21,561 nucleotides of DNA from Catajapyx aquilonaris (taxonomy: Eukaryota). Each line of letters opens with the position of its first letter. Positions within the stretch are counted from its first letter, which is position 1. The position numbers were made by a program, and so were the translations under genes. A model generated the notes under the pieces. The model searched no databases. It worked only from the letters and a program-made list of their open reading frames with translations, and was not told the DNA's origin. The stretch is from contig JYFJ02001311.1 in NCBI GenBank assembly GCA_000934665.2, forward strand, positions 62,001 to 83,561. The letters are read 5' to 3'. Below, in pieces: positions 11,772-17,700 of this stretch.

Positions 11772-14700
11772 CTGCAATTACAGAGAACACAAGATAATGT
11801 AAAACAACAAATAGCCACACTTTAGTTCATACAAAAGCAAGCCTTCAATTTTATTGATTGATTTTTCTTGCCAATGTATTTCATATACTCCTGCTGCTGT
11901 CACTCACCTTTCCACATCCAGGTACATCAACTCCATCAATTGGCCGAGGGATCTCAATGGATCTCACAACTCCATACTTGTTGCCTTCCTCACGGATGTC
12001 CTCCAATATATCCTCATATTCTTCCTCATCCCTCAGCTCCTCTACAGTCACCATATTCATCAAACACAGTACCTGGAGCAGAAAAAAAAGAGATAATGTG
12101 GCCACGTATCCTTGACACCCTGCATTATAATCCATACGAAAAGCTGCACTAACCTCTGTAGCAGGTCCAGCACCTCCCGTTAAGCTGAGCCCTGGGACCT
12201 GAATCTGCACTGGTGCCTGCGCACTCATCTGTCCATTCTTGGCCCCTACGCTGGCACGTTGGACGATCAGTTTCTTGTCACCCAGCTGCATCCCATTCAG
12301 TCCAGCAATGGCCTGAAAAACCAATCATCATCATCATCCTATCACTATTGAAACATACGAGGGATTCTCCAAATTTTTTAAAATTCTTCTGAACTGCTTC
12401 AGGCAAAAGATACACTTTCCTGTGATTTATCACTACTGTATCACAGTGAAGACACTCAATAATGTGACAATTGTATCTTACTGAACAGACTTGCCACATG
12501 CAAGATGCATGGAAAATCTTGCATCTGGATCATGCAAGGTACTTGAATTTTATTAATACCAATTGCATTCATGTAATCTGAATATTTTCACCAGCAAACT
12601 GTCAACTCAGCAGGATTAAACCTTACCTGGTCGGTGATGGAGATGTCGACGTACTCGCAGAAGGCGTATCCTTTTGAAAGGCCAGTGGCAGAATCCTTCA
12701 CCAGGTTAAATGCCCGCAGTTGGCCAAATGACATCAGGAGCTCCTTGACCTACAATGCAAAATGTGGATTGGAGGGAACCGAAGAAAAGAAGTCGATTAG
12801 TGTGCGAACAGGGATCACTGCCGCTACCTAACGTTAAGTCACTTGTTACTTGTTTCTTGTTTCCATACTGAAATACTGGCATGAATTAGGACATAAAACA
12901 AGTAGCAAGTGGCGCAGTAGTACACGTACTGGTATGTGATATTCCAATACAACCTGCCCAGATTTTGTCACAAATTTCAGCTTATCTGGAAGTGAGCCTT
13001 TATATCGTACAAATTGTGGCTTACATATTACTGTGCATAAACAAAGACTCCCAATTTTTCAAGGCTGCTCTTTCCAATGCTAAACACCACATGGTGACAC
13101 GTATATTAACACAACTCTCTTGGATCACATGCCTTTTTATGGTACTGACATCGGGTCACTTACCTGAATAGAGTCTGAAGGCCCTGAGTGGCCTGGACCT
13201 GAAACTCATGTCTCTACTAAATTGCACAGACAGTGGATAGGAAGACATTGACTACACGCATGTCACAGGATCACAATTATCGTTAACTGAAACCAGAGCT
13301 GTCCAAGAGAAATTTTGTATCTCGCGTGTTCCTGCTTCGAGGTAACCTAACAATCCGCTTCCTACATTCAGGCAAGATCAGCAATGTTATGCTACGAACC
13401 CACTCTTGATTCCCGGATCATCTCATTTTCCTGATACACTGTCTTAGCACCACTAAATGTTGTTCACTTGTTCTCCATGACTACTCACCCCTTAAAGGAC
13501 ACCTTCACCCCCACTTCACATTGGGGGTGGGGAGGTGGAGGGTACTGGGGACTGGAAACAATTAAGAATGGGGGGGACGGTGGGATGAGGGGGGGAAAAT
13601 ATATGTATAAAAAAATAGTGACCAAAAAAAAATATCAGAGCAGCCCATTCTGGGAAATACGTGTGGTTTACTTGCCTTAGCAGTTCCAAATTCGAGCGGG
13701 AGATCTTTTCAGATTGCGGATGTTCACTCTCACTTTTTCGAGAGGTCAGAGAAGGGGACAATGGCAGGCAAGTGGTAGTTACTACCCGTGAAACCTTAGC
13801 TGCGATAAAAATGGAGGGAGGGGGGAAGAAAAAAGCAGAGCAGCAGATGAGTTTTCCAAGTTCAGAACAATGACAAAACAACAATTTAAATTACGCCAAT
13901 TTCCAACCCTGTAACCCTGATCTTTGAGAGTTATAATTTTGTTCTTCTTCATTCAACATTCTGGGATTTAACGTTATTGTTTCTACGCACTTAAAAATCC
14001 CTCCTGAAATGAAAACCTGGAAAGAAAAAAAAGTGCTGCGGTCCCATCTCATCCCATCATCATCATCATCATCTCATCTGCTGGGAGATATTTTACTTGA
14101 AACCCGAATCTGTGAAAAGGAGGGCTGAAAGGCAAAGCCTGCAAAGACAGATTTCTGCGACCATTGTCCGCTGCTCGAGACGTTGTTAAAAACAATTAAA
14201 AAATAGATGCATTTAAAAAAATGAAACGAAGTGCTGCTGGTGGCGCACAGACCTAGACCTGTTGGGAAATTCAGGTGTGGGAAGATGCAGGAAATATATT
14301 TCCGCCTATCCATGATCGTGTTAACTTCCAGCTCTAATGATTGCACCGAGCAGAACTCAAAACTGTGCCCATAAATCTCTAGCATTTTGAATTCAAACTA
14401 ATGCTGCTTCTGACAATACAGATTTATACGGTAACAGCTTTTCTTACAATCTGCCCCAATGTATTATCCTTTGCAAACTTGGCAACAACAATTGGCTCAA
14501 TATTTCAATCTGATTGATCGACGCTGTCCCTACTTCGGCCTGAAAGATACGAACTGGGAGAAAAGGGAAGGGATGGTGTGGTACAAAGACACGAAGTCCA
14601 TTGCAAGGTAACCAAAAAAAGGAAACTAAAAAAATCCATCTGCTGGTGAACAAATTTGAAATGCCTGGAAAAATGGTCAGGGGAGGAGGAGACAAGAAGA

Positions 14701-17700
14701 CTTCTTTTGTGTGGGTGTATGACATAGCTCTGTTTCTCTATTCAACAGTTTCGCACATTCTTTTCTCTCTCTTTTTTTCCACTCCTGCAAACACATGGAT
14801 CTGGACAATTAGCATTCTTCCAAGAGCACTGGAAAATGTCAAGACTGAGCCAAACACCTACAAATGTGGAATGAAAAATACTGTACTGGCCCCAAACACT
14901 TAGAACCATAAGGAACTATCAACGCAGTATTATCACAGACACACTTCCCATAATAAAAGCACGTGAAAGTGTCTGGAATAATACTGCGCCGATACTGCTA
15001 ACTGTCCATGAAGCGGGAATTTTAAAGTGTCACTCTGACTGCCAGTCAAGACTTTCTACAATGACATGAAACAATTCCCACATCAGACACAGTGCTCATA
15101 CATGAGCCTTGTGGTTTTTTCACACTAACTCCAGCTTCACAGCTCAAGCTTTGTTTGGCCCAGTCTTTTTCCTCACCTACCTTTGTAGCACTTCCAAGTT
15201 CAGAAAAAAGAAAAACAAATCCTTCCACATTTTAATCGTCCAGTTGTTGATGGCGAGAAAAAAAAATATTTCCTGTACACAACCAATTACCATAATAGAC
15301 ATTTTCCCAGAGTGACTTATAGCACTCGAATGTGAGCCTCAACATTTCCTTTGTAGCATAGCATGACTTTTCTAATGGAGGATGTCCCAGATGTAGCCCA
15401 CAGTCAACTCCCAAACATTTAACTTGATGCCAGAAGTGTAATGAAGGCCAAGTAAAACAGTGAATTTACTCAATAAGCCTAAACAAAATTGTACTTTCTA
15501 CGTTTATCACAAAAATTGTTGTCGAGTGGCACCTAAAAAAGATTGTAATTGGTAGGCCCTTGTCTCATGGCTTACTAGTAGTACTAGCTGTGGTAGTTAC
15601 CTCAGCCCAACAAAACTTTCCTAGCACTATTGAAGTAATTTCTTTAACAAATGTTTAGTCATAGCTTCATGTCCAGAAACATAATAATAATAATAATAAT
15701 AATAATAATAATAATAATAATAATAATAATAATAATTTTGTTCATTAATATTAAGTCACTTCATTCACAATAGCCTACATTCTAAGTGGGATAAAAGTAA
15801 CATTTAAACTTCCTGTCACTGACAGGAATTTATTCAAAAAATTGCAAACAACATTATGGCATTGTAAGACATGACTTCTGCAAATCCCCAAGCACATCTT
15901 AAATCATTATTTCAATCTTAAAACCCATTTCATCTGCCAATCTGTACTCAATAGAAGTGCTGTGGGCTACACTTTTCAGGGAGGCATCCAGAATATCTTT
16001 GGCATACATCTAGAAAGAGCATACTTACGAGCTACGATTGCAGGTAAAAAAAACTGTGCATCCTACCTGATCCTCGTTGAGGTAGTTGGGTAGCCCCCCG
16101 ATGAACATCTTGTGTGGAGAGTCCGGCACAACTGTGCTGATAACGCCTGCAATCCACGGGATATCTACCATTATTTTTTAACAACCCATTAGCTCCTGAG
16201 ATATAAACAATTAAAAAATTCTGTCCTAATCTAAATACCGGTACCTGGAACATTGGCTGTTGGATTTTCAGACATTCCTGGCATGGGTTGGTAGTCATGA
16301 GGTCGGCGGATCTTCAAACTCTGGCCCTTGAAGTTGATCCCATCAAATGCCATTGCTTGTGTCGTTTCATCTATAGACCGGAACTAGGGAGAAGAAATGC
16401 AGGTGTCAATGAATGAGGAGTACAACTACATTTCACATTTTAATAGCCTAAAGGAATGCTCACCTCCAAGAATGCAAAGTTTTTGTCCAGGTTGATTTGG
16501 CAAGCAAGCACGGGATTTCCCGCTGCTTGTGCCAGGCCTGAAAGGTGCATTTGCTGATTGAAGAACTCCATCATTTCCTCCTGTAAAATTAAAAAAGAGC
16601 AAATTAGTACTTGTAAGTAACATCCATACGCCATGCCTACTCACCTCAGTGACTCCAAATGGAATGTTTCCAACGTACAGGCGTCTAGCCTGCCTTGTAA
16701 TAGTGGATCCCACAACAGGCACTGCTGCCTGGGGAGTGTCGGCCACAATGTTTGCTGGGATCTGGCCGGCGGCTGCAGCAGAAAAAAAATGTTCAGGTCC
16801 TAGTTTGTAACCCCAAGAGTGACCCAGCGTTAGTAACCGGGTCGTAATCCCCACCACTATTTTGTCTCTCACCTTGCATTGCCTTGTACTGCAGAGGAGT
16901 GATGTGCTCAAATCCTGGAGGAGGTACATCCCAATACAGTGAGGGCTTCCTACGTCGTGATCTGCGTTCTCTCGACCTTGAAGTTCAAAGAGTTCATTAA
17001 CTGAAAGTCCAACCTCATACAAAAAAGGGCACTAGTTATCAGACAATTGGTTCCATCTTTAAAACTTTGTGACTGTCTACACATTTTCAAGCAATTACTC
17101 AAACTTAAGGATGTGAACTAGCCATAATATTCACAATGTAATCTTCCTGGCAAACAACTCTGAGAGACATATGTTTATATGGAATGTATGCACAATCATT
17201 GGTTATGAAATGCTTGTAAGTAAATTACATGGCTTGAATGTTGCAAGTAGTTTTAAAAATGCCTCATTTAATGTTAATTAATCTCGTCACATAATCAAAC
17301 TTGATTTACAATTAATGCCATTTTCAATTTTTGAATACGACACCATGACTCACAGATCTGACAAAATCATCACCCAATGGTAAATTTCATTTGCTTTCAT
17401 TAACTTAATTAGGCAGATGCCATTTTCTAAATTTTGGTCATTTTTGGAGGGCCAGAAAAAAAGAAAAGAAAAAAAACCTGCTGGCATCTAGTTACAGAAA
17501 TGCAAGGGGAAGAATGAAATTAAAAGTCTATGTCACAATCTGATCTGGAAGGATATGCCAGTTTGGGTCGCAGTGGATAAAACAATTCACTCACTGCATG
17601 TTCGAGTTTTCAGGCGCTCCACTGGGTGCAACAGGAGCAGCATTGTCCAAGGATTGTCTGAGAAGAAATCATGTTACATTGAAGAAAGACACTAAGAGTT

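Follow-up and report, generated by a model that had tools for sequence, protein, structure and literature searches.

The 21,561-nt window analysed here (the whole stretch of Catajapyx aquilonaris contig JYFJ02001311.1 from position 62,001 to 83,561, in whose own numbering all coordinates are given) carries on its minus strand U2AF2, the gene for the large subunit of the splicing factor U2AF, and our subject is the one very long intron of that gene, which divides the second RNA recognition motif (RRM2). Most 3' splice sites are selected by U2AF, whose dose has transcriptome-wide effects on splicing; to our knowledge, control of its level in animals is known only in fragments, from a worm exon and from the human U2AF1 exons. 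The best named protein matches were to the splicing factor U2AF 50 kDa subunit of crustaceans and insects. The exon that follows the long intron (12627-12749, minus; the RRM2 core, VKELL...ITDQ; RNA joint 12311/12626) matched RRM2 of human U2AF65 over all 41 residues (E 1.6e-19) as well as Pfam RRM_1, and the exon that precedes it (16067-16164, minus; the start of RRM2, ending in ...LNEDQ) is placed by the RNA joint 16164/16245 and by a continuous RNA contig over 15775-16164. By these protein matches the gene is U2AF2 of an arthropod, and an arthropod origin is borne out by the crustacean and insect names and by a neighboring receptor gene whose nearest clusters are from arthropods.

Between these two exons lies a GT..AG intron of 3317 nt (12750-16066, minus). 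The nine other introns of the gene, fixed by RNA joints, measure 136, 81, 314, 80, 80, 64, 100, 618, and 830 nt. A first-pass annotation, made from the letters of the window, had described a 3317-nt intron dividing RRM2 of U2AF2 among introns of 64-314 nt; the long intron is confirmed with bounds 16066..12750 on the minus strand, and the shorter range is correct within the RRM/UHM part, outside which lie the introns of 618 and 830 nt. The 5' splice site of the long intron, cag/GTAGGA, scored 8.6 bits, mid-range among the gene's ten sites. None of six open reading frames (ORFs) in the long intron gave a Pfam match, Rfam returned no family at gathering score (the long intron gave only sub-threshold matches), and ARAGORN found no tRNA.

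RNA evidence came from a single public run (X1) that matches this DNA and whose kind is unlisted, in the form of assembled contigs, which drop minor forms. We take the run to be RNA-derived, since nine of the gene's GT..AG introns are missing from its contigs. Contig 1 (3037 nt) skipped the 136-, 81-, and 314-nt introns and ran unbroken from exon 12626-12749 into the long intron as far as 14496. Contig 4 skipped the 80-, 80-, 64-, 100-, 618-, and 830-nt introns and continued from exon 16164-16067, unspliced, to 15775. Contigs 2 (14571-14961) and 3 (15106-15616) lay wholly within the long intron. All four aligned to the window with 0 mismatches, and the parts of the intron left uncovered were 14497-14570, 14962-15105, and 15617-15774, the last of which contains an (ATT)19 repeat. 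The exon-exon joint 12749/16067 was carried by none of these contigs, from which minor forms are dropped; for the same reason the unspliced form is taken to be more than a trace. DNA contamination or bulk pre-mRNA is argued against by the fact that the same contigs cleanly skip the nine other introns. Selective retention of the 3317-nt intron in otherwise spliced RNA is therefore supported, and the unproductive isoform that the first-pass annotation had predicted was found to the extent that the intron is unspliced at both boundaries, the nine others are removed, and an early in-frame stop is present. That stop (16025-16027, minus; ORF 16025-16177) lies 13 codons into the intron, so that the unspliced form encodes the RS region, RRM1, and no more of RRM2 than its first strand, and three exon junctions lie 3' of the stop. 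Because translation ends there, the retained RNA cannot give a functional U2AF large subunit.

The apparent retention at the 3' boundary could also arise from an intronic promoter that yields a short transcript of the 3' part of the intron and the downstream exons. Contig 1 has a mean depth of 55.6 compared with 8-16 for contigs 2-4, and a comparable short worm isoform, uaf-1b, comprising part of RRM2 and the UHM, is described in the available part of PMC2762039. However, each contig has just one mean depth, a value by which parts of the gene cannot be ranked; contig 4 passes the 5' splice site unspliced, and the interior of the intron is occupied by contigs 2 and 3; and an in-frame TAG stands directly before the exon, downstream of what would be a leader of ~1.7 kb. 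We consider such an internal start improbable.

The sense strand of the long intron carries TTTCAG six times and TTCCAG six times, each at exactly the coordinates that had been claimed, and all 24 positions listed by the first-pass annotation were verified as YAG on the minus strand, with the three long pyrimidine tracts it quoted also present. Its antisense count of about 3 was slightly low, the actual number being 3 + 1 = 4. All 12 sense TT[TC]CAG hexamers fall within 12868-14973 (minus), in the 3' two thirds of the intron, and none in its 5' 1076 nt. Other splice-site-like features show a similar asymmetry: there are 12 pyrimidine runs of at least 9 nt on the sense strand vs. 3 on the antisense, 10 of the 12 lying in the 3' part of the intron (12750-14990), and five 5' splice-site-like matches of at least 8 bits on the sense strand vs. 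0 on the antisense. The best of these, a perfect CAG/GTAAGT at 13163 (12.7 bits), scores above all ten real sites of the gene. In 2000 dinucleotide shuffles, 3.99 +/- 1.92 TT[TC]CAG hexamers were expected and none of the 2000 reached 12; the density elsewhere in the window, 0.82 per kb of each strand, predicts 2.7, for a Poisson P of 2.9e-5 and a window scan statistic of 0.0002. The densest group comprises four pyrimidine-tract-plus-YAG sites (AG at 14665, 14626, 14554, and 14540) within 133 nt (14540-14672, minus; cluster P 0.005 vs. 200 shuffles, antisense not significant), and a second group holds six YAG (14139, 14125, 14110, 14081, 14017, and 14004) within 136 nt (14004-14139, minus). Direct repeats within the intron were short and weak only, and the motif copies are not duplicates of one unit. 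By the maximum of YYYYAG per 150 nt the window intron was not set apart from others (4 sense, 3 antisense). The strand asymmetry and the clustering are the solid remainder of the motif evidence. The excess of hexamers is real yet modest to moderate, at 12 vs. about 3-4 expected, with P running from 3e-5 to 0.08 depending on the control.

Two pairs of sites within the motif zone could delimit pseudo-exons on the minus strand. Candidate A (13489-13599) would begin in a pyrimidine-rich stretch from 13599 (with a 13-nt run at 13599-13587), use the TTCCAG at 13552 as acceptor, and include an exon of 63 nt (13551-13489) with an in-frame TGA as its 12th codon and the donor GGG/GTGAGT (8.7 bits). Candidate B (13158-13199) would join the TTTCAG at 13199 to the consensus CAG/GTAAGT donor through an exon of 35 nt (13198-13164), inclusion of which would change the reading frame.

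At the upstream edge of the motif zone lies a long hairpin of 78 nt and ~33 bp (inverted repeat I1; 14917-14994, minus), with a folding energy of -44.5 kcal/mol (z -6.2; 0 of 200 shuffles as stable). The TTCCAG at 14973 is buried in its stem, and RNA contig 2 ends inside it, at 14961. Its Rfam matches are miRNA-like and all sub-threshold. It is very improbable that the intron is kept long for other cargo of this kind, for example the hairpin as a small-RNA precursor, with the motifs incidental. The high stability of the hairpin and its weak, sub-threshold likeness to miRNA precursor models fit that idea; no Rfam family reaches threshold, however, and both the retention and the cross-species pattern described below would be left unexplained.

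A metagenome scan with the next exon returned 78 loci. Many of them share the intron after LN(E/D)DQ, at lengths from about 47 nt (L031) through 2239 nt (L035) to more than 9.1 kb (L001, where more than 9.1 kb lies upstream of the matching exon and the preceding exon was not reached); it is absent in L020, L022, L024, and the lowest-identity, most distant loci. In 11 gene copies pooled, the RRM2-splitting intron contained 2.13 TT[TC]CAG per kb on the sense strand and 1.09 on the antisense, vs. 1.19 and 1.14 for other U2AF2 introns of at least 300 nt (P 0.015), and the same pooled comparison for YYYYYYAG gave P 0.004. We also assessed clustering as the maximum number of YYYY(N)YAG per 150 nt relative to 200 shuffles, trimming 40 nt from each intron end and applying a cut-off of P <= 0.02. 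A sense cluster was significant in seven of the 11 introns at the RRM2 position (the window, L004, L035, L032, L034, L037, and L040). Four of these loci (L032, L034, L037, and L040) form one related group, which reduces the count to four of eight lineages with a sense cluster. No antisense cluster was significant in the 11 introns, and of 23 other long U2AF2 introns, none had a significant sense cluster and one had a significant antisense cluster. The pattern seems to recur across distant animals. As to the conservation of YAG clusters that the first-pass annotation had proposed to look for in the orthologous intron, clusters recur in seven of 11 introns, and at the nucleotide level the window intron has no similarity to any of 11 loci compared, all of them too distant.

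Individual loci give a view of what such clusters look like. L035 has five strong sites in 110 nt. In the L032 group, whose members are AT-rich, animal-like U2AF2 loci, the RRM2-splitting intron measures 635-790 nt and carries a TTTTTAG cluster, and the other introns are about 50-60 nt. The distant U2AF2 relative L026 (47-72% identity in four exons by tblastn) was not significant by the cluster test; its intron at the RRM2 position contains six TTTCAGCT units in ~400 nt (L026:1408-1830), vs. 0.8 expected, with none on the antisense strand and none in its three other introns. Three of these units sit in a degenerate repeat of 87-99 nt, each with a second TTTCACAG, and a donor-like GTAAGT follows the units at 1988. 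A separate observation concerns L022, which lacks the RRM2-splitting intron: its 1683-nt intron two exons downstream (10163-11845) has 6 sense vs. 1 antisense TT[TC]CAG and two sites 14 nt apart, although its cluster P of 0.15 is not significant.

Protein databases offered a second view of this boundary across species. The query was the upstream exon plus the intron-encoded tail, and the 120 best database proteins were listed. After ...LNEDQ, 84 of these continue with V (as encoded by the donor GT) and then unrelated residues, 32 with VKELL, and 4 differ. As short proteins may be genomic ORFs, we limited the count to proteins bearing four or more of the five upstream exon marks, of which 55 read on at the RRM2-splitting boundary and 30 were spliced; the intron boundary that follows, assessed by a matched search with the next exon as anchor, gave 2 and 41, respectively. 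All five upstream exon marks were present in 20 read-through forms. Among these 20, UniRef holds two from Clastoptera arizonana (267 and 272 aa, where the full form has 444 aa) and one from Proconiini; others are gene models of Chironomus riparius and Rhynocoris fuscipes, and several come from Logan contigs of 1.2-4.4 kb. One of them, P0074, starts with MSDFDEFERQL, which we take to be a vertebrate-type N-terminus. These counts support the view that the RRM2-splitting boundary is left unspliced in many database sequences from other species.

Two proteins depart from this pattern: P0023 (from Logan contigs) and P0052 (named as a beetle protein) have a common alternative tail after LNEDQ, LGLTSRSL.. 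and LGLSERSV.., which suggests a conserved alternative exon or donor in the RRM2-splitting intron rather than read-through. Their tail resembles a spliced alternative exon and so bears on a different account of the locus, in which cassette exons such as 13551-13489 and 13198-13164 are spliced in, the products decay, and the unspliced RNA is an intermediate. That account could draw on the strong acceptor and donor pairs described above, which are read from the sequence, and on the low-confidence candidate poison exon in human U2AF2 reported in the available part of PMC6547761. We nevertheless judge poison-exon splicing unlikely to be the explanation here, given that no internal junction was found among the X1 contigs, though these drop minor forms, and that 84 of the 88 unspliced-type tails among the best 120 proteins begin with V, as in read-through.

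The reading that we favor, tentatively, combines selective retention with decoy motifs and feedback by U2AF. The RRM2-splitting intron would be selectively retained to give an unproductive U2AF2 RNA with an early stop. Its internal 3' splice-site-like motifs, its pyrimidine tracts, and its few consensus donors would serve as decoy sites or pseudo-exons, drawing U2AF (and U1) into complexes that fail to excise the intron as a whole. More U2AF would then favor the unproductive form, and since the gene encodes the very protein whose ligand the decoys are, negative feedback would follow. There is precedent for the elements of such a scheme: in the available part of PMC6097662, decoy exons are frequent in retained introns of >1 kb, their acceptors bind U2AF1/U2AF2, and the splice sites are required, and U2AF2 can promote retention via a weak pyrimidine tract according to the accessible text of PMC12934665. 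A decoy function of the motifs is plausible. We infer beyond the observed retention that the motifs cause it, that U2AF binds them, and that retention follows the U2AF level; the evidence fits self-limiting feedback on U2AF2 and does not prove it. The proposal of the first-pass annotation that excess U2AF diverts its own pre-mRNA to detained or unproductive isoforms thus stands in its retention half, with its "U2AF sensor" half a hypothesis.

Several results weigh against this reading. The terminal splice sites of the long intron are of ordinary strength, so that a decoy explanation is not forced. Relative to the nine other introns of the gene (3 TT[TC]CAG in 2303 nt), the excess has a binomial P of 0.079. 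Broader measures are close to expectation: 114 YAG were found vs. 105.7 expected, and 12 pyrimidine tracts (11 of 15) followed by YAG vs. 9.5 (P 0.25), with no enrichment in the intron of YAG, YYYYAG, or pyrimidine 9/12, 11/15, or 12/15 plus YAG proxies. Each hexamer taken singly occurs 6 times vs. 1.5-1.8 expected (P 0.005-0.011), many unrelated hexamers are equally extreme, and a ranking of all hexamers did not single out TTTCAG and TTCCAG. The motif excess asserted by the first-pass annotation accordingly holds for TT[TC]CAG relative to shuffles and to the rest of the window, and not for the broad pyrimidine-tract-plus-YAG pattern. The X1 contigs, which drop minor forms, show no junction to or from any intron-internal site, such as the cryptic junctions that the first-pass annotation had proposed to look for, and one run of contigs conveys no level, strand, poly(A) status, or cell compartment. 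Among the related loci, blastn of the long intron against 11 of them returned only chance-level matches, all being too distant; L001, L025, and L028 have no significant cluster (L001 P 0.34); and L001, the closest relative, shows no strand bias in its hexamers (17 sense, 12 antisense). The database proteins come without stated DNA or RNA origin, gene models may be interrupted where an intron is long, and with clusters drawn at 90% identity variable tails are overcounted.

Many of these same points would be expected if the intron were retained without decoys, simply as by far the longest intron of a gene, and of an organism, in which introns are otherwise short, with the hexamer excess reflecting composition and post hoc choice of motif and playing no part in the control of splicing. 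The broad 3' splice-site measures at expectation, the equal enrichment of many unrelated hexamers, the P of 0.079 relative to the gene's own introns, and the missing clusters in L001, L025, and L028 all agree with it. So does the behavior of the shuffled controls, which are too lenient because the hexamers of L001 exceed its dinucleotide shuffles ~2.2-fold on both strands. Length and composition leave other observations unaccounted for, however. The strand asymmetry extends over hexamers (12:4), pyrimidine runs (12:3), and 5' splice-site-like sites (5:0); the same contigs cleanly skip introns of 618 and 830 nt; and clusters recur at this position in unrelated lineages and not in the 23 other long introns. 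We regard retention without decoys as somewhat doubtful.

A wider version of the decoy reading would be an old, animal-wide module in which the RRM2-splitting intron is retained and loaded with U2AF sites, and the U2AF level sets the share of RNA that is wasted or detained. It would span this arthropod, other arthropods, L026, L035, the L032-group animals, and possibly vertebrates. We regard this extension as unlikely. Were the feedback confirmed, a retained intron of U2AF ligand at a position common to distant animals would constitute a simple and testable dose sensor, and also a natural case of decoy-driven retention with a trans-acting factor known from the outset. With the numbers from other species (the clusters, and the boundary ratios of 55/30 vs. 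2/41), the question becomes answerable by raw-read RNA-seq from arthropods or vertebrates.

Some further features of the gene and its surroundings were recorded. Before the exon that precedes the long intron there are two in-frame acceptors 18 nt apart (16147-16165, minus). The RNA contig takes the upstream AG (exon start 16164), which adds DIPWIA; the downstream AG would yield a ...NVPGVIST junction, which we take to be the human one. This spot also distinguishes two entries of Clastoptera arizonana, NVPAGVIST in one and NVPGNLNQTGVIST in the other. A 63-nt exon (17595-17657, minus) between the RS-domain exon and the next exon was shown solely by RNA joints (the 618- and 830-nt skips), and the intron downstream of it has an unusual ..TTCAAG end under the sole fitting GT..AG placement. 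The first coding exon of U2AF2 was not located. Upstream of the RS exon, at 18664-19900, many diverged RNA contigs pile up to a summed depth of 144-162, with numerous mismatches and loose ends, and copies of a unit of 15-16 nt, TTCTATAACTCGAAT, are found; this looks like an expressed repeat family. On the plus strand, an intronless ORF of 693 codons (8219-10300) had a weak ligand-gated ion channel match (E 6.6e-6, under the Pfam cut-off), and its nearest Atlas clusters were arthropod ionotropic receptor-like proteins, which we treat as a lead only. It runs toward the 3' end of U2AF2 in a convergent arrangement, the U2AF2 RNA contig stopping at 10929. The window contains one single N, at about 20190.

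Retained introns in splicing-factor genes are known as a class, to which we add the RRM2-splitting intron of U2AF2 as a member. One close comparison is with the cases of decoy-exon retention, SF3B1 intron 4, OGT, ARGLU1, and DDX39B (Parra et al. 2018, PMC6097662), whose cryptic sites are often several and in competition. As in the part of that work available, a retained intron of >1 kb was found here in a splicing-factor gene whose RNA is otherwise spliced, in one run, and the intron has candidate internal acceptors and donors (donors of 8.7 and 12.7 bits), here from sequence alone. There, in contrast, the decoys described are highly conserved, seen by junction reads, and minigene-tested, whereas here the putative decoy-binding factor is the gene's own product. 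A second comparison is with mammalian U2AF feedback, in which exons 3a/3b of U2AF1 act in unproductive splicing (Pervouchine et al. 2019, PMC6547761, available part, which also lists the low-confidence U2AF2 poison exon). In both systems a stop-containing isoform would limit a U2AF subunit, the premature stop being present here and the limiting role proposed; the mammalian feedback as described there works by exon inclusion and decay, and the present one would work by retention. Our literature search, with subscription journals and supplements outside its scope, found no description of retention of the RRM2-splitting U2AF2 intron in arthropods or elsewhere. In the accessible text of PMC2481429, "U2AF2 intron 6" comes up solely for its pyrimidine tract, and the parts available of a review of splicing-factor feedback (PMC12179342) and of a paper on plant U2AF65A/B splicing (PMC4419537) added nothing specific.

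The retained form also resembles the detained introns, in that one specific intron is kept in an otherwise spliced transcript of an RNA-processing gene. Boutz et al. reportedly described these in 2015 as nuclear, polyadenylated, and late-spliced introns of splicing-factor genes. That class is defined by nuclear location and delayed splicing, and the intron in the window is known from RNA contigs only.

Akin to it in logic is exon 3 of uaf-1 in C. elegans, which MacMorris, Zorio, and Blumenthal reportedly described in 1999 as a stop-containing exon made up of repeated 3' splice-site consensus sequences, with U2AF proposed to keep the RNA nuclear through them. As in the worm, the gene here encodes the U2AF large subunit, the motifs are the ligand of its own product, and the RNA is stop-containing and unproductive. 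The worm exon is said to be a spliced-in exon of 216 nt with about 10 consensus octamers, or about 46 per kb, whereas here 12 hexamers are spread over 2106 nt (5.7 per kb) of a retained intron, and exon inclusion was not seen in the X1 contigs, which drop minor forms. An array as dense as that reported for the worm was not found, the densest groups having 4 sites within 133 nt and 6 within 136 nt. The label "array" given to the motifs by the first-pass annotation is not supported, since they are about ten times sparser than is reported for the worm exon and full-length pyrimidine-tract sites are not enriched. The six TTTCAGCT units in ~400 nt of L026 come nearer to the worm exon than does the intron in the window, and are the closest parallel we noticed. 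The window intron is thus not a strict member of the exon-3 type, and is similar to it in working. If an animal-wide module does exist, exon 3 of worm uaf-1 would be one local form of a general device and not a nematode curiosity.

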